Assembly: GCA_013265495.1 (NCBI GenBank) | Contig: MU057989.1 | Location: 1,939,513 to 2,003,512, forward strand | Source: Vicugna vicugna | Taxonomy: Eukaryota | Direction of reading: 5' to 3' | Length of the DNA: 64,000 bases | Shown here: in pieces, positions 11,640-64,000 of the stretch | How positions within the stretch are numbered: the first letter of the stretch is position 1 | Layout: the number at the start of each line of letters is the position of its first letter | Translations under genes and position numbers: made by a program | Notes under the pieces: generated by a model | Databases searched by the model: none | What the model saw: only the letters and a program-made list of their open reading frames with translations | What the model was told of the DNA's origin: nothing

Positions 11640-13290
11640 GTTTAAAATAAACTTTTACTTTTAGAATAGCTTTAGATTTACAGAAAAATTAATAGTGTAG
11701 AGAGTCCCTACATAGGAAATAGGTGTGGGGTATTTCTCTGTTCTTAGCATCTTACGTTAATGTGACACGCTTGTCCCAATTAGCGAACCAGTACTGATGC
11801 AGTCTTATTAACTAAAGTCCACAGTTTATTCAGATTTCCTTAGTTTTTACCTGATGTCTCTTTTCTGTTCCAAGAGCCCACCCAGGACACCACCTTGCAT
11901 TTGGTCATCCGGTCCCCTTAGTCTCCTCTGGACCATGACAGTTTCTCAGTCTTTCCTTGTTTTTGATGACCTTGACAGTGTAGAGGAGTACCAGTCAGCT
12001 GTTTTGTAGAATTTGCCTCACTGGGCATGTATCTGGTGGTTTTTTGTGATTAGGCTGGAGATTTGGGTGTGGGGAGGAAGGCGCAGAGGTGAAGTGCCCT
12101 CTTATGCCATCCCATCCCATCACACATCCCATCTCATCTCATCTCATCCCATCCCATCCCGTCCCACATCCATCCCATCCCCTCCCACATCTCATCATAT
12201 CCCATCCCGTCCCATGACATCGCATCCCATTATGTGCAGTGACCCTGAGTTAGCACTGCCGCTTGTGCCCTTGACCCCTGGCTGAGGGTGTGTTTGTCGG
12301 GGTTCTCTGCTGTTCAGCTACTCTTCTCTCCCTTTTCATCCTGTGCTGTTTGGAAGGAAGTTGCTATCCACAGCTCGCACCTAAGGAGAGCAGAGTGTTT
12401 ACACAGATTATGTGGAATCCTCCTGTGGGGGAGGTTGATCTTTCCCCCCTTTTGTTTATTTACTTAAACCGTATCAGTGTGGACTCGCAGATACTCGTCT
12501 CATATTTTGGGCTATAATCCAGTAGAGCTTTCATTTTCTTGCTTAAATTATTCTGACTTTGGCCTCTGGGATCTTTCAGGTGGTTTCTGCGTCCTTTGGA
12601 CATACCTCCCGTAATTGTGGAGTGTTTTTCTTTCTTGTTTTCAACACTAACTCACTTTCTGGCTCTGCAGGATGCTCCTGGCTCATCTGGTCTAGTTCCT
12701 GCTTCCGTCCTAGAACCAGCCATGTCTGCCAGGAGCCCTGGATCCTTTTACTGGAGAGTGTACTAGGAACTAAGCTCGGGGCGCTCTGTGTGCTCTGCCA
12801 CTAGGGGGTCATCTGGGAGGAGCAAGGAAGCCTGTGTATGTATACTGACCCCAGCGTGTGCACGAACCTGTAGATAGTTCTGTACGTCAGGACCTGTATC
12901 TGTAGTCAGAGAAACGTGACTTGTACTGACATCTCTCCCACAGCCTGTGATCACACACGTCATTCATACCTTCTGTCCTCACCATCTGCAACCTCTCATT
13001 CCAGCAATGAGAAACTTGCTCCTACCTCTGCCGTCCACCCACCCACGCCCCTGTCCCCCGTTCAGGTCCAGGCCAAGTGCACGGACATCTCGGGATTGTA
13101 CACACAGGCCCCATGTGTGCGGGGTGCATGCTCCATTCCTTTTGCCTTCAGCTTACAGACCCCATTTCTAAAGGAACTCGTGTCGGCACCTTTTTGCCCC
13201 CACCGTCTTCAGGGAGGTTGTGTCACACGTTAGTAATACAGTTAGAGCCCCTTTTCACAGTGTGACTTACTTCCCAAGACACTTGACTTT
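11640..13290 (-). mobile_element. Old L1 (L1MC-like) 3' region
   Basis: ttttagaatagctttagatttacagaaaa...ttattaactaaagtccacagtttattcagatttc motifs. Confidence 0.6.
12107..12230 (+). repeat. Degenerate (CCCAT)n pentanucleotide repeat
   Basis: catcccatcccat...cccatcccgtccc. Confidence 0.85.
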
Positions 13291-13304
13291 CTAAATGATT
13301 TTTT

Positions 13305-15689
13305 TTCTTTTTTTAAGTATAATTTGATTTACAATGTTGTATTAGTTTCTGGTGTATACCATAGTGATTCAGTTATACATATATATGTATATATGCATAT
13401 TTTTCATACTCTTTTTCATTATAAGTTACAAAATACTGGATATAGTTCCTTGTGCTATACAGAAGAAACTTGTTTATTTTATATGTAGTAGTTAGTTTTT
13501 GCAAATCTCAAACTCCCAGTTTATCCCTTTCCACCCCCTTTCCCGCCTGGTAACCGTAAGTTTGGTCTCCATGTCTATGAATCCTTTTCTGTTTTATAAA
13601 TAAGTTGATTGCTATCTTTTTTTTTTAGATTCCACATGTAAGTGATATCATACGGTTTTTCCCTTTCTCTGGCTTGCTTCACATAGTATGATAATCTCCA
13701 GGTCAATCCATGTTGCTGCAAATGGCATTATTTCATTCTTTTTTATAGCTGTGCAGCATTCCATTGTGTAAATATACCACATCTTCTTTATCCAGTCATC
13801 TTTGATGGACATTTAGGTTGCTTCCATGTCTTGGCTGTTGTAAATAGTGCTGCTGTGAACACTGAGATGCATATATCTTTTCAAATTAGAGTTCCCTCTG
13901 GATATATGCCCAGGAGTGGGATTGCTGGATCATAACTAACTCTGTTTTTAGTGTTCTTTTGAAGAAACCTTTGTACTTTTCTCTATCATGGCTGCAGTAA
14001 TTTGCATTCCCACCAACATTGTGGGAGGGTTTCCTTTACTCCACACCGTCTCCAGCATTTATCCTCTGTGGACTTTTTAATGGTGGCCATTCTGACTGGT
14101 GTGAGGTGATACCTCATTTTGGTTTTGATTTGCATTTCTCATATAATTAGGAATACTGAGCATCTTTTCATGGCCATCTGTATGTCTTCTTTAGAGAAAT
14201 GTCTATTTAGGTCTTCTCATTTTTGACTGAGTTGTTTCGGGTCTTTTTGATATTGAACTGTGTGAGCTGCTTATATATTTTAGAAATTAATCTCTTGTCG
14301 GTCTCTTGTTTGCAAATATTTTGTCCCATTCCATAGGTTGTCTTTTTGTTTATGGTTTTGCTGTGCAAAAGCTTTTAAGTTGAATTAGATCCCATTTGTT
14401 TATTTTTGTTTTTATTTCCATTACTGTAGGAGACAGACCCCAAAAAATATTGCTGTGATTTAAGTCAGAGTGTTTGTTCTGCCTATGTTTTCCTCTAGGA
14501 GTTATATAGTGCTTGGTCTTACATTTAGGTCTTTAATCCATTTTGAGTTTATTTTTGTATAGGGTGTTAGAGAATGTTCTAATTTCAGTCTTCTACAGGT
14601 AGCTGTCCAGGTTTCCCAGCACCATTTACTGAAGAGACTGTATTTTCTCCATTGTATATTCTTGCCTCCTTTATTGTAGATTAATTGACTGTAAGTGCAT
14701 TGGTTTATTTCTGGACTTTCTGTCCTGTTCCATTGATCTTTGTGTCTTGTTTCTGTGCCAGTACCATACTGTTTTTGTTACTGTAGCTTTGTAGTATAGT
14801 CTGAAGTCAGGGAGTGTGACTCCTCTAGCTCCATTCTTCTTTCTCAATATTGTTTTGACTATTCAGGGTCTTTTGTGTTTCCATACAAGTTTTAAAGTTT
14901 TTTGTCCCAGTTCTGTGAAAAATGCCACTGATAATTTATAGGGATTGCACTAAATCTGTAGATTCCCTTGGTTAGTGTGGCCATTTTAACAATATTGATT
15001 CCTTCAATCCAAGTACACGGTGTTGTATTCAGTTTCTTTCATCAGCGTCTTACAGTTTTCAGGGTACAGGTTCTTTGCCTCCTTAGGTAGGCTTATTCCT
15101 AGGTATTTTATTCTTTTTGATGGACAGATGGTAGATGGAATTGCTTCCTTAATTTCTCTTTCTGATTGAGTTGTTAGTGTATAGAAATGCCACAGATTTC
15201 TGTGTGTTAATTTTGCATCCTGCAGCTTTACTGAAATTCATTGATGAGCTCTAGTAGTTTTCTGGTTGCTTCTTTAGGGATTTATATGTAGAGTATCATG
15301 TCATCTGCAAACAGGGGCAGTTTTACTTCTTCTTTTCCAGTTTGGGCTCCTTTCATTTCTTTTTCTTCTGATTGCTGTGGGTAGGGCTTCCAAAACTATG
15401 TTGAATCAAAGTGGTGAGAGTGGCGTTCTTGTCTTGCTCCTGATCTTAGAGGAAATGCTTTAAGCTTTTCACCATTGAGTATGATGTTAGCTGTGGGTTT
15501 GTCATATCTGGCCTTTATTACGTTGAGATATGTTGCGTCTATGCCCACTTTCTGGAGAGTTTTTTTTAAATCATAAATGGATGTTGAATTTTATCGAAAG
15601 TTTTTTCTGCATCTATGGAGATGATCATATGGTTTTCATTCTTCAGTTTGTTAATGTGCTGTGTCACATTGATTTGTGGATACTGAAAA
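13305..15689 (-). mobile_element. 5'-truncated L1 (ORF2 3' part + 3'UTR) with TSD
   Basis: Antisense ORF2 motifs; TSD ctaaatgat(t/c)tttt at 13291-13304 and 15690-15703, followed by AA (TTTT/AA endonuclease site). Confidence 0.9.
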
Positions 15690-16969: not shown

Positions 16970-17395
16970 CTTTATTGAAGTACAGTCAATTACAATGTGT
17001 CAACTTCTGGCATACAGCACAACGTCCCAGTTATGCATGTACATACATACATTCGTTTTCATATTTTTTCCGTGAAAAGTTATTATAAGATATTGAAGAT
17101 AGTTCCCTGTGCTATATTGAAGAAACCTTTTTTTTTAAATCTGTTTTTGTATATAGTGGCTAACATTTGTAAATCTCAAACTCCCTGATTTATCCCTTCC
17201 TACCCTCTTTCCCTGGTAACCATAAGATTGTTTACCATGTCTTGTGAGTCTGTTTCTGTTTTGTAGATAAGTTCATAGTGTCTTTTTTTTTAGATTCCAC
17301 ATATGAGTGATATCACATGGTATTTTTCTTTCTCTGTCTGACTGACTGCACTTAATATGATAACCTCTAGGTCCATCCGTGTTGCAGCTGATGGC
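16970..17395 (-). mobile_element. L1 3' end
   Basis: tttattgaagtacagtcaattacaatg...ttccctgtgctata...tagattccacatatgagtga. Confidence 0.8.
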
Positions 17396-17624
17396 ACATG
17401 GCTTCTCCCCCCTGTTTTTTCCTATCTTGGCCCATTGTTTGCTTATTCAGATCACTTGTTTTAGTAGGTAATCACATTATTTATCTGTTCACCTCTTTTG
17501 GCCTGTCTCCGCCTGGCAATTTTTCAGAATGCCATTTAAATGAAGGAAATGACTGAAATATTGTGTTGTTTGTATACAGATGTGTTTGGTAAAGTGCTTT
17601 TCTGTTTTTCTTTTGGAAATTAAG

Positions 17625-17727
17625 AAGAGACGTGGAGGTTGTCCTTCTCTCACGTTGAAAAGGACCTTTTGAAAAACCATGGGCAAGCTAAAACATGCTG
17701 TGAAACTGATGGAGTGAAATGTTGCAG
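17625..17727 (+). CDS. CGAS: CGAS exon 4 (zinc thumb H...CC...C)
   Basis: taag|[48 protein letters not shown]|gtaact; 103 nt; absent from the ORF track. Confidence 0.97.
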
Positions 17728-18157
17728 GTAACTTCCTTGTTTTATTACAGGACAGAGCATCAACGGAACGTTTAATTCTTTGTTGACCCCATAGCTCAGA
17801 CCTGAAGATGATCATGGCTGGGTTGAGCTGTATTAGAGCGTGAGCGTGGAGCAAGGAAGCCAGGTCCCAGGGGCCAAGGGAAGAGTGCTGGTGGAAGGCA
17901 TGGCGAGGGCATAGTCCTGAGCCTGACTATGGGTGTACAGAGGAGGACAGAGTCAGGGTGTGAACACCAGGCAGGACTAGCCGTGACAGCTGAATTTGTC
18001 CTAGTGTTCTGGTTGCCTCAGGGTAATGAGTATTGATGCCGCATAGCGGGAGGAGGTCAGAGGACCACTCTTACTGGATGTGGGTGCTCGCTTTGAGACG
18101 GTTTGTCTGCATTCAAGGCCAGGGACTGACCACCCAAATCTGAAACCACACTAAGAG

Positions 18158-18275
18158 ATGGGTAATTACTTTCCTTGGTACTTCCTTGATTGCCGCTTGG
18201 AGGCGGTAGCGGGGGTTGAACTGGGGACCTCTTGATTGCTGAGCGTGTACTCTGCCGCTTGAGCTGTACCCTTCT
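18158..18275 (-). mobile_element. Highly diverged vic-1-like SINE
   Basis: ggtaatta ... gggggttgaactggggacctc...cttgagctgtaccct. Confidence 0.6.
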
Positions 18276-18394
18276 GCCAAAAAGAAACTGCTCTTGAAAA
18301 GGAATCATCTGTGGTTCTAAAGTTGTCCAGAGTAAGGGCCACAAAAATTAAAAGGTCGAAACAAGAACGTCCAGTGTGCAGGCCCAGGAGGTTC

Positions 18395-18523
18395 TTTGTT
18401 TTGCGGGGCGGGGGATAATTGGGCATTTATTTATTTATTTATTTAAATGGAGGCACTGAGGATTGAACCCAAGACCTCCCACATGCTAAGCATGCTCTGT
18501 ACCACTGAGCTATACCCTCCCCC
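18395..18523 (-). mobile_element. vic-1-like SINE
   Basis: SINE core and tail. Confidence 0.85.
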
Positions 18524-19124
18524 CAGGAGGTTCTTGAGGCTTCATCTAAGGGCCTTTGAAGCAAGCATATTAAGAAACATATATTGCTGATAAGGCTCAA
18601 TAACTACATAAACATTAAATTTTGTCAACTACAAATAGCTGGATAATTAATGTAAATGTTGCAGCCTAGTAAAGCAAAACCATTTTATAAAAATTAAAAC
18701 ATGATTTTTCCAGGTACTACATAACTGGATGACTACTATAAATGTCTGCCCAGTTTCATGTATTGAATTAATCCTGATAGAATAAAATATTTAAGGTAGG
18801 AATGGAGGAGAAAGAAGGAAAAAATGTATTTTTGAAACTTTTTTTTTAAGTTGAGGTGGTCAAGTGGTCAGACTATTGAAAATAGTCAGTTTAGAGTGTT
18901 GTGTCAATTTCTGGTGTACAGCATCATGTTTCAGTCATACATAGACACATACTCCTTTTCATATTCTTTATTATAGGTTACTACAAGATACTGAATATAG
19001 TTCCCTGTGCTCTAAAGAAGAAACTTGTTTATCTATTTTGTATTTCTATTTTTTAAGCTTCTTTTTTTTAAGTGTTAAGCATTTATTCTTAAATGTGGGA
19101 GAAAATGAAAAGATTATCACAGTA

Positions 19125-19590
19125 GTATAGAAATGAAGCCGTCTATTTGCAGCAATGTGGATGTCCCTGGAGAATGTCATTCTAAGTGAAGTAAGCCAGA
19201 AAGAAAAAAAAATATCACATGAGATTGCTAATATGTGGAATGTAAAGAAAAATAAATTTAAAAAAATAAATGAGCAAAAATACAAAACAGAAACAGACTC
19301 ATAGACATAGAATACAAACTTGTGGTTGCCAGGGCGGGGGAGGGTGGCGGGAAGGGACAGACTGGGAGTTTGAAATTTGTAGATACTGACGGGTATATAT
19401 AGAAAAGATAAACAAGATTATACTGTATAGCACAGGGAAATATATGAAAGATCTTGTGGTAGCTCATGGTGAAAAAGAATGTGGCAATGAATATATGTTC
19501 ATGAATAACTGAAAAATTGTGCTCTACACTGGAAATTGACACAACATTGTAAACTGACTATAATTCAATAAAACAAAATTAAAGAACAAA
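19125..19590 (+). mobile_element. L1 3' end (relatively young)
   Basis: ctaagtgaagtaagccaga...gtatagcacagggaaatat...aattcaataaaa A-rich end. Confidence 0.85.
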
Positions 19591-19893
19591 ACACAGCCAT
19601 CTAGCCACATGGTGCTCATAGGTGATACACCTTTTTTTTTATTGCAGTTATTTTTGAAACTTTTAAAGCATACATTTGAAAAAATCATTAGGTTTTAGAG
19701 TGACTTTATAATTATGTTATTTTTATATATCTTTATTGTTTATTATATCTTGTTTTCTGTATCATATGTATTATAATATCTGTACTTTTTATTATATCGT
19801 TACATGTTTTTCCTGTGAGGTGCCTAAAGCTCATTATAGAATGAAACAGATTGTAAATAAATAAAAATAAATGATACTCTTTTTTATTCAAAG

Positions 19894-20245
19894 GAAAGAC
19901 TGTTTGAAGCTAATGAAATATCTTTTAGAACAACTGAAGAAGAAGTTTGGAAAGCGAAAGGAGCTGACGAAGTTCTGTTCTTACCACGTGAAAACCGCCT
20001 TCTTTCATGTCTGTACCCAGGACCCGTATGACAGTCAGTGGCTCTCTAGGGACCTGGAGCTCTGCTTTGATAAATGCGTGACATACTTTCTTCAGTGCCT
20101 CAGGACAGAACAGCTTCAGCACTATTTCATTCCCACAGTCAATCTGTTCACTCCAGACCAAATTGACAAAGCAAGTAAAGAATTTCTATCAAAGCAAATT
20201 GAAGATCAGAGAAACAATGGATTTCCAGTTTTTGGTGCATTTTGA
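19894..20245 (+). CDS. CGAS: CGAS exon 5 (Mab21 C-lobe, stop)
   Basis: tcaaag|[22 protein letters not shown]...[10 protein letters not shown]...[11 protein letters not shown]; 352 nt; total CDS 1512 nt. Confidence 0.97.
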
Positions 20246-21039
20246 AATTATATTTTTTAACAGAATCAAGAATCAGAGTGCCTTTACAGTAACTGAAGTG
20301 TTTGGAATGTGTCACAGCAATGACTGATTAAAATGAATGTAAATCATTATTTATTCAGCTCTCAGTTTGTCTCGGTAAATGCTAATTAACATAAAAGGGT
20401 AGATTATCCTAGGAAAGAGATTAGTCAAGGAATAAGACGCAGAAGGAGTGTTGAACCAGGAAAGCTTTACCAGTGGAATGAGAAGGACAGAATTCCCATC
20501 ACCCTGGTTAACTCCATCAGGCCCCTGCTGCACACTCCGCATGCGGCGCTAATGCATGGAAGCTGGCGAGAGCGTCTTAGGAAGGACCGCTGCCTCCTTA
20601 CTGTTGGTTTTGTTCAGCGCACAAATATATTTAGAAGCCATGTCCTGTCCTTCTTAAGAAGAAAATGAAAAAAAAAAACAAAACAGGTTCTGCAAGTCTC
20701 AGGAAATTCATAACCTTTTACAGGAAGGCACAGGACACTTAACTACACGTGGCTAAATACAAAACAGAACTTATTTCATTTTCAGTACTACCTTCCATGT
20801 GTATTTCTGAAAAGGTAATACGTACCCATGGTACAAAACTCAAAAGGGTGTGGCATGAAACGTCGCCCTCTCTTCTTTGCGCTCAGGCAGGGTTCACCTA
20901 GAGGCACCTGCTGTTAACGTTTTCCCTTTCATGTATTTTGCACATTTTCTTATCGGTTATTTTATTGTTTTCTCGTCATTTTTATCATTTTCATATAACA
21001 ACTTCTACTGTGTGGATTGTCTATATCTTTCTTTTTGTA

Positions 21040-23250
21040 AATTTTCTTAATTAAAGTATAGTCCGTTTACAACGTGTTGATTTCTGGTGGACAGCATAGT
21101 GATTCAGTTATACATACATATATATATATGTATTCCTTTTCATATTTTTCATTATAGGCTATTACAAGATACTGAATATAGTTCCCTGTGCTGTACAGAA
21201 AAAATTTGTTTATCTAGTTTATATTTCTATTTTTGAAGCTATAGGACCTTGTTTATCAATTTTATATATAGTAGTTAGTATCTGTTTATCCTAAACTCCG
21301 GATTTATCCCTACAGCCCCTCTTCCCCCTGGTAATCTGAAATTTGTTTTCTATGTGAATCTGTCTGTTTCTGTTTTGTAAATAAGTTCATTTGTGTCATT
21401 TTTTAGATTCCACATATAAATGCTATCATATGGTATTTGTCGTTCTCTGTCTGACTTCATATAGTGTGACAATCTCCAGGTCAATCCATGTTGCTGCAAA
21501 TGGCATTATTTTTTTCTTCTTATGGGTGCATTGTATAAATATACCATAACTTCTTTATCCAGTCATCCATTGATGGACATTTAGGCTACTTCCATGTCTT
21601 GGCTATTGTACATAGTGCTGCTATGAACACTGGGGCACATGGATCTTTTCAAATTATAGTTTTCTCTGGATATATGCCCAGGAGTGGGATTGCTGGATCA
21701 TATGGTAAGTCTGACTTCAGTTTTTTTGTTTGTTTGTTTATACTATGAGGCTTTTAATAGGTAATGAAAATAAATAATATTAGAATATTATATATTCTGA
21801 AATATATACATATATGCATATATATATTTCTAAATCATCCACCTGATAATCTTTATATTCAGTTTCATATAAACCTTTTTTTTAACATATAGTTTACAGC
21901 ACTCTGCCAATTTCTGGTGTACAGCATAAAATTTCAGTCATACATATGCATATGTGTATTCCTTTTCATATTTTTTCATTATAGGCTATTACAAGATATT
22001 CAATATAGTTCCCTGTGCAACACAGTAGGACCTTGTTTATCTATTTTATAGTAGTTAGTGTCTGCAAATCTTGAACTCCCAGTTTATCCCTTCCCACCCT
22101 CTTTCCCCCACTAGTAACCATAAGTTTGTTCTCTATGTCTTTGAGTCTCTTTCTGTTTTATGAACAAGTTCATTTGGGTCATTTTTTAGATTCCACGTAT
22201 AAGTAATATGTGGTATTTTTCTTTCCCTGTCTGACTTCACTGAGTATGATAATCTCCCAGTCCACCTGTGTTGCTGCCAATGGCGATATTTTATTCTTTT
22301 TATGGCTAACTAGTATTCCATTGTATATATAGACCACAACTTCTTTATCTGGTCATCTGTTGATGGACATTTAGGCTGCTTCCATGTCTTAGCTATTGTA
22401 AATAGTGCTGCTGTGAACATTGGGGTGCGTGTGTCTTTTCAAATTATAGTTTTCTCCAGATACATGCCCAGGAGTGGGATTGCTGGATCATAGGGTAACT
22501 CTTTTTATTTTTTTAAGGAACCTTCGTACTGTCCTCCATAGAGGCTGCACCAAATTACATTCCCACCAACAGTAAAGGAAGGTTCCTTTTTTCCACACCC
22601 TCTCCAGCATTTATTATTTGTAGACTTTTGAATGATGGCCATTCTGACTGGTGTGAGGTGATACCTCATTGCGGTTTTGATTTGCATTTCTCTAATAGTG
22701 ATATGGAACATTTTTTCATGTGCTTGTTGGCCATTTGTCTTTGGAGAAATGTCTGTTTAGGTCTGCCATTTTTGATTAGGTGCTTTTTTCTGTTACTGAT
22801 TTGTATGAGCTGTTCGTATATTCTGGAAATTAAGCCCTTGTCAGTCACATCATTTGCAAATATTTTCTCCCATTCTGGAAGTTGTCTTTTCATTTTGTTA
22901 ATGGCTTCCTTTGCTGTGCAAAAGCTTGTATGTTTAATTAGGTCCCATTTGTTTATTTTTGCTTTTATTTCTACTGCTTTGGTAGACTGTCCTAGGGGAA
23001 CATTGCTAAGATTTAGGTGGGAGAATGTTTTGCTTATGTTTTCTTCTAGGAGGTTTGTAGTGTCTTATGTTTGTCTTTAGGCCATTTTGAGTTTATTTTT
23101 GTGTGTAGTGGGAGTGTTCTAACTTCACTGATTTACACGCGGCTGTCCAGTTTTCCCAACACCAGTTGCTGAAAAGACTGTCTTTTCTCCATTGTGTATT
23201 TTTGCCTCCTTTGTCGAACATTAATTGACTGTAGGTGTGTGAGTTTATAC
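21040..23250 (-). mobile_element. Two stacked L1 3' fragments (~21040-21725 and ~21880-23250)
   Basis: Repeated 3'UTR blocks; ORF2 C-terminal peptides [17 protein letters not shown] and EWEKIFAN in the ORF track. Confidence 0.9.
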
Positions 23251-60856: not shown

Positions 60857-62359
60857 CAGTTCGTAATCGAGTAATTTGGGAAAGAAACCAAACAACCAGT
60901 GGTGAAGGAAGGGGCTAAATCAAACTGTCCCCATCCTGAGGGAAATCAAGCTGCTAGAAGGTGAAAAAGGTATATCCAAAAATGTAAAAGTACATGTTAA
61001 ACTGTTTAAAGTGATTTCCTGTAAGACAGGAAGTTTGAGAGGGCAGACATGGAGGCCTGGGGACTTTGATTTGGGTGAAGACTCGGCATTGGTTTGGCAC
61101 TGGTTTATGCCCTGCTTGGAGAGGAAATTAAGTTTCTTTAAAAATCGATACTTTATGGGCATAAGGAATTTTACATAGAGGTTCGTAACACCTAAATGCT
61201 TGTATTTAAAGTTCAACCTCCCTTCTTTTCCTGAGTCCCTCCAGCCAAGGAGGTTTACTATATTTCACCACTTTCTTTCATAAACTGGTTTCAGACATGT
61301 CCATGTGATGTGTGTGCATATAGAGGGCATTTCTGTCTAAGTTTCAGAATAGTCAGAGACTCCTAAATATTCCCTTGGCTTGCTACCTGCTGCTCCTTTC
61401 TTATAAAGGAGAGAATAGGACATTCTGGTCAAGTGGGTACTACTTAGGTGGGGTAACACAAAACAAACCAGAAAAATATTGCTGAGTCTTAATTCTACTC
61501 TGCTGTAGCCTCTAAACATTGAGTCTGCATTGATTTTTAGTCTTGTGTTTAAGTTTCACTCACCTCAGCTATTTTTAGAAGAGGCAAGGAGAAGCCTATT
61601 AACTATTGGTAAATTCAGCTCGCACCTTTATTTTCCTTATTATAAACTAAAGACTTATTTAAAATTGGAGGGATCATTAGGGGACACACCACTCCCTGCT
61701 CTTTAAAGTTAGGTTTTGTTGAATTTTTTTTCTAGTTTTTATTTGCTTCCCAATGATTTCCTTGAAAGGATTAAAGATTAACAGCAAGATATGATAGATG
61801 ACAGTTTTATCAAGCAATATACTATGGAAGACACAGCTGGTGGTGTCCAGGTCCACTTACAAATATGACTTTCCTGCAGACAGAACTAGCAATACTTGCA
61901 AATGTGGAACACGTGCTCAACAAAATTCAAACAACCTAATAGAACATTGTGCCTTCTGTTCATCTTTGGGGCAGGTACTGATCATAACTTATTTTCAGTT
62001 ATCTGTGAAATACTTCAAGTGTTTACTGCCCTGTTCATTCCCCCCAGTTTTACTGTTTGTTCAGGATCTTTTGGGTTTTGTTTTCGTTTTCCCTGAGGTA
62101 TAATTTACCTACAATAAAGCTTACACTTTTTAGCTGATGGTTCAAGATTTGACAAATGTATACGGTTGCATAATCACCAACTAATCAAGCTGTAGACAGT
62201 CTGTTAACCCCAAGAGGCTCTCTCTTGGCCCTTTGCAGACAATTGGCTCCTTCCAACCCCAAGGTTTTGGTGAATTTTTAAAACAAAAGGTTCCGTAACA
62301 CTGAATTGATTCACGTTGTTTTTGATCCTAGCACCCAGCTGTTGGCAGTTTACTTCCCT

Positions 62360-63440
62360 CATCTAGCGACGGTGCCAGGACCGGGAGTCAGACCGATAGA
62401 GGTGCGAATCACCCCTGCCATGGAGCAGCCCCGCTGCCCCCGCTTTTCCGGTTCCCATCCCCCGACCCCGCCGTCAGTTGCCCGAGGGGAAGTCCGGGGC
62501 TTGCAGCGCCGAGAAACGCCAGGCCCGGGTTGAAACCAAGTTTTCGCTTCCCAGGTGATCTTGAGTGGAGACATCACAGTCTTGGACAGGTTTCCCGGAG
62601 AAGATGGGGCCAAGAGGCCTTTGACCTTCCAAAGCCGGATGCGCGCGGTGAAGGGGCACAAGGGAAGCACCTGGTCGGCCAGAAATCCAAAAGCTCCCCC
62701 CGGCCTGAGTGCGAGTCAGCCCAGAGCACTCGTGCCTCTCCCCCACTTCTCCCTGCCACTTAACAGCCGTTAGGGAAATTCGGCTCTTAATAGAACTCTG
62801 GGTTCGTGTTTGCAAACATTTTAATGGGGTGGTGGGGGGGAGGGGACACCAAAACCAACCCACACACCGTTTTCCTTCTTTTCAGCTTCTGCATCAGAAT
62901 CAGAACTGAGAATAGAGCTCCAGACAGGGGCTTCCACTTTGACCTTGCCTGGCGCTCTTGTTCCTGGGCCCCAGATGCCTTCAAAACCTGGTAACCGGGC
63001 TCTGGGCGGTAGCTTCGGGGAGGCGCTGGGCCGCCGCCTCCCTGACAGGCTCCTTCTCCGAGCCTGGAAGAAGAGCAGTGTGAGACCACGCCTGTGTTCC
63101 AAATACTCTCTCCTCAAAAGGAGTCAGCAGTACGGGCTGCCGGGGTTGGCCTGGAATCTGAGAGTACGAGGTCAGTTAGGTCCTCTAGATCCCTTGCAGA
63201 GAAGAACCCCCTCCCCGCCAAGGCGAACTAAGAGGATGAGACCGCTGCCCAGGCACAGCCAGGAGGCATCAAGATCCCCTGCCCAGGGAACCTTTCACTG
63301 TCCGGGGTCCCGTACTTGGCGGTGCAGGGGCCTGTTCGCAAGACTTCGCAGGTGCACCCGGCCCGAGCGCCTCATCTGGATCCTCCCACTTCCAGGTGCG
63401 CTGGTAGAGGGCGGAGCTCCGGGCTTGAGCCTACGACTGG
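62360..63440. promoter_or_regulatory. CpG-rich region around the KHDC3L remnant
   Basis: Elevated GC/CpG relative to flanks. Confidence 0.55.
62785..63063 (-). pseudogene. KHDC3L: KHDC3L (ECAT1/FILIA) last exon, collapsed, plus 3'UTR; upstream KH exons not found
   Basis: ctcttcttccag|GC TCG GAG AAG: (G/S)SEKEPVREAAAQRLPEATAQSPVTRF* (TGA 62983-62981) resembles recalled human exon 3 GSGK...VREAGTQR...DPVTRL*; following tgaaggcatct...aaagtggaagccc...gcaaacacgaacccagagttcta resembles the recalled 3'UTR; strand and position fit synteny. Confidence 0.7.
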
Positions 63441-63874
63441 GAAACTGTGGAAGCAGTTAACTGTGGACTCAGGGAGGTGAGGACGGTCCCAGAGAGGTAG
63501 GAGAGATCCAACACCAGGAAAATATCTTTCAGAGAAGCGAACTGATATTTGCAGACACCTGGGTGCATTTCAGACAGTTCTAATGGTATCAGTTTAGCAT
63601 TCCGGAGGGGTTGGAATAACTTTTAAATGGAAAACCTAATTAAATACATGGGAAAGCAAAAACTTAAGGGGGTAAAAAGGTGTTCAAAGCCTTAAGTCCC
63701 CCACTTCCTCCTGAACCCTGATCACCGAGTTCCCTCCCCAGATCCCAGTACATTTCCGTCTTCTTCCTTAGCATATTAGAGACAGCTGAGCACAGCCAAT
63801 AGCGGCTGGTCCCTGTGGTTTGGACACCAGAGGAAAATCCCTTAAAAATTTTTTCAATTCTCTAAATAACACGA

Positions 63875-63955
63875 TTGCCTAGCATGTATGAGGTCCTGGG
63901 TTCAATCCCCAGTACCACCATTAAAATCAATCAATCAATCAAATTAAAAAATAAA
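63875..63955 (+). mobile_element. vic-1-like SINE (5'-truncated)
   Basis: gcctagcatgtatgaggtcctgggttcaatccccagtacc plus tail. Confidence 0.8.
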
Positions 63956-64000
63956 TAGCATGATTATATCTTCATTTCTTGATTTTTCTTCCAGCTTAAA

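Follow-up and report, generated by a model that had tools for sequence, protein, structure and literature searches.

The stretch under study, hereafter the window, comprises 64,000 nucleotides without any N (C1192:1939513-2003512) of the 2.03-Gb Vicugna vicugna assembly, which is divided into 12,405 scaffolds; coordinates given without a scaffold name are window positions, continued past 64000 where needed. Near the end of the window, on the minus strand, lies a set of sequences related to KHDC3L (KH domain containing 3 like; also KHDC3, ECAT1 or C6orf221; Filia in the mouse), an oocyte/embryo gene that encodes a member of the subcortical maternal complex. A first-pass annotation, made from the letters of the window, had described there the collapsed last exon of a KHDC3L pseudogene, and this description was followed up computationally. 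The features recognized in the interval were as follows:

62786..62980, minus strand: 3′ untranslated region (UTR) relic, with ATTAAA at 62825-62820 and ATTAAG at 62791-62786; matches to scaffolds C10018 and C7947
62981..63063, minus strand: relic of a KHDC3L-type exon 3, recognized by sequence, translation, DNA identity to the copy on scaffold C4059 and peptide alignments
63064..63291, minus strand: intron 2 relic, with a polypyrimidine tract, the acceptor AG at 63065-63064 and a distal donor GT at 63291-63290
63292..63324, minus strand: last 33 nt of exon 2, starting CAC CGC CAA, recognized by flank-wise alignment
63324..63325, minus strand: deletion junction, the upstream flank ...CCCCTG being joined to exon 2 CACCGCCAA
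63325..64000, minus strand: former upstream (promoter-side) flank, 81% identical over 683 bp to the C4059 unit

The exon 3 relic is entered through an acceptor preceded by a polypyrimidine tract, where the minus strand reads ...ctgctcttcttccag/GC TCG GAG AAG... (a slash marks exon boundaries throughout), the exon beginning in phase 1 at 63063. Its coding part of 80 nt (63063-62984; 27 codons including the split first one, the last codon at 62986-62984) with the stop TGA (62983-62981) reads GC TCG GAG AAG GAG CCT GTC AGG GAG GCG GCG GCC CAG CGC CTC CCC GAA GCT ACC GCC CAG AGC CCG GTT ACC AGG TTT TGA, and translates to (G)SEKEPVREAAAQRLPEATAQSPVTRF followed by the stop, with one repeat unit and the C-terminus PVTRF. 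The phase-1 acceptor AG and the 27-residue last exon on the minus strand, as annotated, were both borne out by the sequence and its translation.

The kinship of this exon to the KHDC3L last exon, which had also been claimed, was supported by DNA and peptide matches. Window 63013-63320 aligned by blastn with intron 2 and exon 3 of the C4059 copy (L020 89-393) at 79.7% identity over 310 bp (E 2e-71), and this match of the relic to a KHDC3L-type intron 2 and exon 3 is far beyond chance. In the last exon of P0011, the Lipotes ‘KHDC3-like protein’, both the start (the first repeat unit) and the C-terminal end gave alignments with the relic peptide (E 7e-5 and 2e-5, pairwise); the peptide also aligned with P0001 (E 0.004) and P0003 (E 2e-9). 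The last exons of the KHDC3L/KHDC3 proteins P0004, P0011, P0006 (Neophocaena) and P0009 (Cynocephalus) follow the pattern x-SEK-x-P-x-x-(E/D)AA-x-QR ... PV-x-R-(F/L) and stop, like the relic, in which the SEK...REAxxQR unit, the PVxR(F/L) stop and the phase-1 entry were all found. The C-termini are alike as well, with SSEKPPAREAATQR...QGPVNRF in P0011 (Lipotes vexillifer) and ...DPVTRL in P0009. The proposed collapse of the repeat region stood in that the relic carries one unit, compared with ~3 to ~10 in cetacean and ferret KHDC3 proteins, but it is mostly a family trait, camelid copies having 1-2 units; exon 3 of the window copy is only 12 codons shorter than that of the C4059 copy.

Downstream of the stop, the 3′ UTR relic was 75.7% identical to C10018 21540-22155 and 76% identical to a fragment on C7947. 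Its ATTAAG was located exactly where the annotation had placed it, and the ATTAAA was an addition to that annotation. No Pfam family was matched by any of the window open reading frames (ORFs) overlapping the relic (0/7), and the 50-residue relic frame, searched against a 5.8-billion-protein collection, gave 71 word-sharing candidates but none with E ≤1, a weak negative, a 27-residue match being near the detection limit. Further downstream on the minus strand, window 62362-62715 translates to ..FGFLADQVLPLCPFTARIRLWKVKGLL.. and resembles the C-terminal extension of the porpoise protein P0006 (..FGFLAARGRSLSRLGQVLPLCSFTARIWLCKVRDL..); this segment, which gave no Pfam match, could represent either a GC-rich element conserved on the downstream side of KHDC3L or an alternative 3′ exon.

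The comparator for these alignments lies at the start of C4059, on the minus strand, where two PF16005 matches (56 bits) correspond to exons 1 and 2 of a KHDC3L-type gene:

C4059 copy, minus strand: exon 1 at L020 904-733, exon 2 at 568-365, exon 3 at 139-23 (ending PVTRF and stop)

Both introns are canonical GT..AG (intron 1 GTGAGT..CAG; intron 2 GTTCTC..CAG). When 1.84 billion representatives were scanned with HMMER, 105 members of the family were obtained, of which 20 were looked up by name; those on the KHDC3 side (porpoise, baiji, colugo, bats and jerboa) were named KHDC3-like or KH domain-containing protein 3, and those on the OOEP side oocyte-expressed protein homolog. With profile hidden Markov models (HMMs) built here from the two sides, the C4059 exons scored 90.8 and 73.6 bits on the KHDC3 model vs. 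14.9 and 8.8 bits on the OOEP model. Because of these named KHDC3 relatives and HMM scores, the C4059 paralogue is identified as KHDC3L-type, and the window exon as its counterpart. The two copies share ~80% DNA identity in the upstream flank, intron 2 and exon 3 and the same PVTRF terminus. The C4059 copy differs in that exons 1-2, with the MOEP19 domain, are kept and that there are two repeat units; it is damaged by an in-frame TAG and the lack of a canonical ATG, not by a deletion.

The intron 2 relic of the window is colinear with L020 140-364, that is, with intron 2 of the C4059 copy. In the exon 2 remnant two donors were kept, a proximal GT at 63315-63314 (CAA/GT) and a distal AAAG/GT at 63292/63291. 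The CAC CGC CAA at 63324-63316, followed by GTACGG at 63315-63310, is present as annotated, but this proximal donor is in phase 0, so that the distal phase-1 donor suits the acceptor better than the one proposed. Read in the frame of the distal donor, the remnant gives ..PPSTGPRTVK/G, and in the frame of the annotation HRQVRDPGQ followed by the stop TGA. The same distal donor fits the C4059 copy, ..YHRQIHVQNTGPGTMK/G (ending NTGPGTMK/G), and the porpoise P0006, ..YHRQLRAQSTGPGTMR/R (ending STGPGTMR/R); the proximal CAA/GT, phase 0 in the window, is homologous to the donor of models such as the baiji ..YHRQLRAQ/SSEK. CAC CGC CAA is ambiguous, since it can be aligned either with the HRQ of YHRQ or with the four codons that follow; the former assignment, which is that of the annotation, is favoured by a contig match in the RNA library X18 (considered below), as this match starts exactly at CAC.

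Flank-wise alignments of the window and the C4059 copy placed the junction at 63325/63324, equivalent to L020 1036/410, with a microhomology of ≤1 nt. The window is without 625 bp of paralogue-type sequence (L020 1035-411), which holds the 5′ leader, the entire exon 1, intron 1 and exon 2 up to its ...ADY codons, and with them the entire MOEP19 domain. On the other side of the junction, the flank 63325-64000 is 81% identical to C4059 1057-1737; window 63343-67660 is colinear with L020 1057-5368 (80.7% over 4.4 kb), and the homology to C4059 runs 3.7 kb past the window (80.6%, L014). The promoter-like look earlier ascribed to the stretch up to 64000 agrees with this homology, which makes it the promoter-side flank. 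The flank also contains a tRNA-derived short interspersed element (SINE) at ~63876-63960, and very high contig depth with many loose ends at 63876-63928 marks the interspersed repeat.

The deletion of the KH-encoding exons had been proposed from the window alone; it was recovered here as 625 bp relative to the paralogue and was present in independent reads. Three DNA runs were used (X4, X2 and X10, with organism labels A, B and C, one per label, from studies P2, P1 and P5), and in each of them a single contig of 1,693 bases extends over 62213-63905, showing 2-3 mismatches and no gap; the depth across 62313-63827 was flat and single-contig. At least 90% of the sampled words of 62600-63900 were present in 14 of the 24 listed public runs, representing labels A, B and C and six studies, although the assembly itself may have been made from the run richest in these words. 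Given the duplication of the region and the gaps in the scaffolds next to it, a mis-join or a collapsed repeat might have dropped the KH exons; however, the window has no N, and the junction is spanned without gaps under three labels and in three studies, which makes an assembly artefact very unlikely indeed, to the point of being negligible. The deletion is a feature common to several closely related taxa.

Exons 1-2 were also sought elsewhere on the scaffold. Pfam PF16005 gave 13 matches in the whole assembly, none of them on C1192, and the KHDC3 HMM, run on six-frame ORFs of ≥15 residues over 96.7 kb (the window plus 32.6 kb to the scaffold end), found no KHDC3 KH exon, the last-exon relic and the KH exon of a DEAD-box helicase gene (E 1.4) being its only matches. 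The absence of exons 1-2 that had been reported up to 64000 was thus extended by 32.6 kb to the scaffold end, and intact exons 1-2 beyond 64000 that splice to 63063 were looked for on C1192 and not found. The window copy has no MOEP19/KH-like domain, exon 1 or start codon, unlike KHDC3L, and no ATG-initiated three-exon frame was found in it, since the start-codon region and exon 1 fall within the missing 625 bp. The window copy cannot encode a KHDC3L protein.

An old segmental duplication has left at least three units, which lie on C1192 (the window locus), C4059 and C10018. The duplicated unit of ~15 kb corresponds to window ~54.8-70.4 kb, C10018 4569-22155 and C4059 1-5368, with C10018 11391-22155 colinear with window 54.8-63.03 kb and C10018 4569-9326 with 65.6-70.4 kb. 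Kimura two-parameter (K2P) distances were 0.167 for C4059/C1192, 0.184 and 0.160 for C10018/C1192, and 0.186 for C10018/C4059. These values (0.16-0.19) are far above the ~2.3% divergence of the relative sampled in X18, and the duplications would be tens of millions of years old at commonly assumed mammalian neutral rates. No second unit was found on C1192, as a self-comparison of 40-70.4 kb against 70.4-96.7 kb gave interspersed repeats only. When the relic DNA was searched against the assembly, three further places were recovered: the C4059 copy; C10018:21828-22155, a third copy of which only the distal half of exon 3 is left (..SPGAAHEAATQSLPNATNRGPVSRF, stop lost); and C7947 (L026), a 205-bp fragment of the exon 3 end and 3′ UTR without any KH part. 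The KHDC3L copies of the three units are each damaged differently, and the units are split over three scaffolds. The scaffolds of the duplicated region contain N gaps, those of C10018 lying at 12856-14964, 17148-18730 and 19482-21056. In addition, C516 (L008) carries an intronless KHDC3L retrocopy with stops, which keeps the ancestral exon 2/exon 3 joint ...KKK/SSEKVPAP; this processed pseudogene resembles the window relic in being a dead KHDC3L derivative of the same genome whose joint matches the window exon start, but it is intronless and at an unrelated locus, whereas the window relic is genomic, intron-bearing and truncated by deletion.

Window 62786-63324 on the minus strand is thus very probably the non-functional stump of one KHDC3L copy, truncated by a single 625-bp deletion within a duplicated block. 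As interpreted here, a block of ~15 kb carrying KHDC3L was duplicated at least twice long ago, its units now being 17-19% diverged. In the unit of the window, a single 625-bp deletion brought the 5′ flank next to the 33 nt that are left at the end of exon 2; the region of the start codon was lost together with exon 1, intron 1 and the bulk of exon 2, and with them the whole KH-like domain. The copy now consists of the upstream flank, the exon 2 remnant with its donors, intron 2, the 27-codon last exon and the 3′ UTR. Of the two possible directions, we infer the deletion to be derived, and not an insertion in the paralogue, since what the window lacks is conserved coding sequence that the KHDC3 proteins of all other mammals possess.

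Several points weigh against this interpretation. The KHDC3 HMM gave only E 3.4 on the last exon alone, so that the last-exon homology rests mainly on the DNA identity to the paralogue. The event might also have run in the opposite direction, as a gain in the paralogue. The synteny with human is judged from the human gene order, and the neighbour OOEP expected from that order was not found between the helicase gene and the relic. The 27-codon frame is open, and the acceptor, both donors and the ATTAAA survive, so transcription or a short ORF is possible. Finally, the X18 contigs over the relic may be DNA carry-over and were not counted as expression of the locus.

The survival of these signals bears on a possible co-option of the stump, under the control of the kept upstream flank, for a non-coding RNA or a short ORF. 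Besides the flank, donors, acceptor and ATTAAA, a 26-codon ATG-initiated ORF runs across the junction (MRRSGRVHLRSLANRPLHRQVRDPGQ and stop), and contigs from the RNA library X18, labelled ‘reproductive system metagenome’, cover the region. However, these contigs, of depth 2-8 over the relic, retain the intron, occur on both strands and run ~1.8 kb past the 3′ end, and no splice joints were seen in them; neither the overlapping ORFs nor the relic frame found a Pfam family or a matching protein in the searches above. Such a co-option is accordingly regarded as improbable. As 63424-63827 has no X18 cover, a transcript of the relative might start there, but the hint is a weak one at best.

The X18 contigs also bear on the age of the deletion. 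Together they span 61072-63324, where 2,217 bases could be aligned and 51 of these were mismatches (~2.3% diverged), and they therefore come from a related species, probably an Old World camel. X18 record 16 (1,118 nt) matches 62883-63324, and its other 680 nt are unlike the window from exactly 63324. No second contig of ≥90% identity in this interval was found in the DNA runs of A-C, so the X18 sequence is not a paralogue from the same genomes. On the simplest reading, the orthologous copy of the relative would still have sequence where the window has the deletion, 680 nt being near the missing 625 bp. The contig comparison suggests that the deletion is recent and clade-specific, having occurred after the split from this relative.

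The window copy is dead, but a ‘pseudogene in this lineage’, as proposed in the annotation, is not established, since this copy is one of at least three old paralogous units and a three-exon copy exists on C4059. The C4059 copy has all three exons and GT..AG introns, but in the assembly it carries an in-frame TAG (L020 521-519; ..CVSQT, stop, LHVSK..) within the KH-like domain, the frame being otherwise open. It also has CTG (904-902) where the models of other mammals start with Met; an in-frame ATG lies 34 codons upstream with no stop between, and could substitute as the start.

Whether any functional KHDC3L is left in this camelid was therefore weighed in two ways. In the first, it has none: the deletion put an end to the syntenic copy, only half a last exon survives of the one on C10018, and the C4059 copy was silenced by the nonsense codon and the lost ATG. 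This agrees with the TAG in the KH-like domain and the CTG at the usual Met position, with the KH-exon segment L020 380-1060 being single-copy in the assembly by DNA search, and with the only other KHDC3-type match being the intronless C516 copy with stops; that no protein in the 5.8-billion collection carries the window last exon agrees weakly. The camelid gene models found were also aberrant in four of four cases: a Met is lacking in P0001, P0002 shows a fusion to OOEP, intron 2 is read through in P0003, and P0016 (EPY76215.1) is partial, without the exon 2 end. On the other hand, at the codon that is TAG in the assembly P0001 and P0003 have Val, so that the stop may be an assembly error, a polymorphism or species-specific. 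The C4059 introns keep GT..AG, the upstream ATG is available, and N gaps in the duplicated scaffolds could hide a copy. Loss throughout the lineage is thus possible, not demonstrated, and we consider it rather doubtful.

In the second, a functional KHDC3L persists elsewhere, as a C4059-type or unassembled copy, and the window holds a redundant, decayed duplicate of a tandem family. There are at least three old units, and the C4059 copy is well preserved apart from one bad codon, as judged from its splice sites and PF16005 score. In Camelus ferus, a single record of 33.5 kb carries P0003 (EPY76214.1) and P0016 side by side, both of them KH-bearing and neither with a match of >85% in the assembly. 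The conventional OOEP that is part of the Camelus model P0002 is absent here, which shows the region to be incompletely assembled. Set against this, the single KH-bearing copy of the assembly has a stop, no other copy was found in it, and the camelid copies are diverged, P0001 sharing 55% identity with the protein of the ferret and only 1-2 repeat units being left at the C-terminus. A functional copy elsewhere is a serious candidate, which we rate as not quite probable. The identities behind these comparisons came from exon 1 of the C4059 copy, which retrieved P0001 (UniParc UPI00018BCABA, 98%), P0003 (85%) and P0002 (UPI00057A2133), and from P0001, which in turn retrieved P0004, ‘KH domain-containing protein 3 [Mustela nigripes]’, with 55% identity over 99% of P0001. 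The protein matches, of 94-98% for P0001 and ≤85% for the Camelus models, agree with a South American camelid. The model P0002 was observed to fuse KHDC3L-type exons 1-2 to OOEP on one strand; KHDC3L and OOEP are convergent at the human locus, so P0002 represents a rearranged unit or a faulty model.

A stronger and more specific claim, that this camelid group lost every functional KHDC3L, the ancestral-position copy by the post-split deletion and the C4059 paralogue by the nonsense codon, appears unlikely. If it were true, the oocytes of this group would build the subcortical maternal complex without KHDC3L, and a large mammal with induced ovulation would be a natural KHDC3L knockout. In women, loss of this maternal-effect gene leads to recurrent hydatidiform moles, and a mammal naturally without it would show how dispensable it is. 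The established event is smaller: one member of an old, camelid-specific multi-copy KHDC3L cluster lost its front by a clean deletion, in a cluster that is badly assembled and from whose assembly OOEP is missing. For annotation, the window locus is best treated as a pseudogene, and the C4059-type copy is worth re-examination.

The gene family is a labile one, and within it the relic is an ordinary find. The KHDC1/DPPA5/ECAT1/OOEP genes are clustered, expressed in oocyte and embryo, and subject to lineage-specific duplications and losses in eutherians (PMC7226043), and according to that source ruminants and the horse have neither KHDC1 nor DPPA5 (PMC7226043, citing Pierre et al. 2007). The passages of that paper on the turnover of these genes leave camelid KHDC3L/ECAT1 loss or duplication unmentioned (PMC7226043). 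A full-text search for literature on KHDC3L in camelids found none, its matches being unrelated by title and abstract.

The setting of the relic was compared with the human locus. The window contains a Mab-21-type gene (Mab-21 and Mab-21_C domains) on the plus strand at ~3-20 kb, and a DEAD-box/Helicase_C gene with a KH exon on the minus strand at ~28-40 kb, which from their sequences and the human 6q13 order we take to be CGAS and DDX43. In human, KHDC3L lies between OOEP, DDX43 and CGAS on one side and DPPA5 on the other. The Mab-21-type and DEAD-box genes are in the order and orientation expected from this arrangement, OOEP was not found in the window, and DPPA5-like exons occur on other scaffolds. 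By the human order, KHDC3L is expected at 6q13 beyond DDX43 and on the strand of DDX43, and the relic sits at the place that would correspond. It resembles KHDC3L in lying next to the helicase gene and having the same strand as that gene, and also in its phase-1 acceptor. KHDC1-like and DPPA5-like exons were observed at C556:70053-77833, C4623:14881-15054, C9932:10359-10526, C6043:7592761 and C7489:4522258, some of them intronless and one with a TGA; since they lie on other scaffolds, the 6q13-type cluster is scattered in the assembly.

A conventional OOEP, as in the Camelus-type model P0002, had no match anywhere in the assembly, and the gene was likewise not found in the window, the scaffold tail, C4059 1-50 kb or C10018 1-32 kb. 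A weak OOEP match at 45181-45077 (E 4.1), in a GC-rich ORF on the wrong strand, was taken as chance. The N gaps of C10018 fall where OOEP would be expected, downstream of the KHDC3L remnant of that unit. About 12 kb upstream of the relic on C1192, a strongly divergent, OOEP-like three-exon gene was observed:

~74916-75115, 75336-75519 and 76103-76398 (window-equivalent positions; L015 ~916-2398), plus strand: OOEP-like gene

Its KH-like part is unusually hydrophobic (..WWWFGVLLVVSAVPGCGVLIFIIGLPFYQ..), and its best family matches are OOEP-type. An intronless copy of it on C10560 (L007 ~1350-2023) is 95-97% identical and has a 188-codon open frame, which indicates that the parent gene was spliced and expressed in the germ line recently. 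A further intronless open frame, of at least 633 codons (to the edge of the examined stretch), lies at C1292:392526-395720 (L009); it contains a full KH and DEAD-box helicase and looks like an intact retrocopy of a DDX43-type gene.

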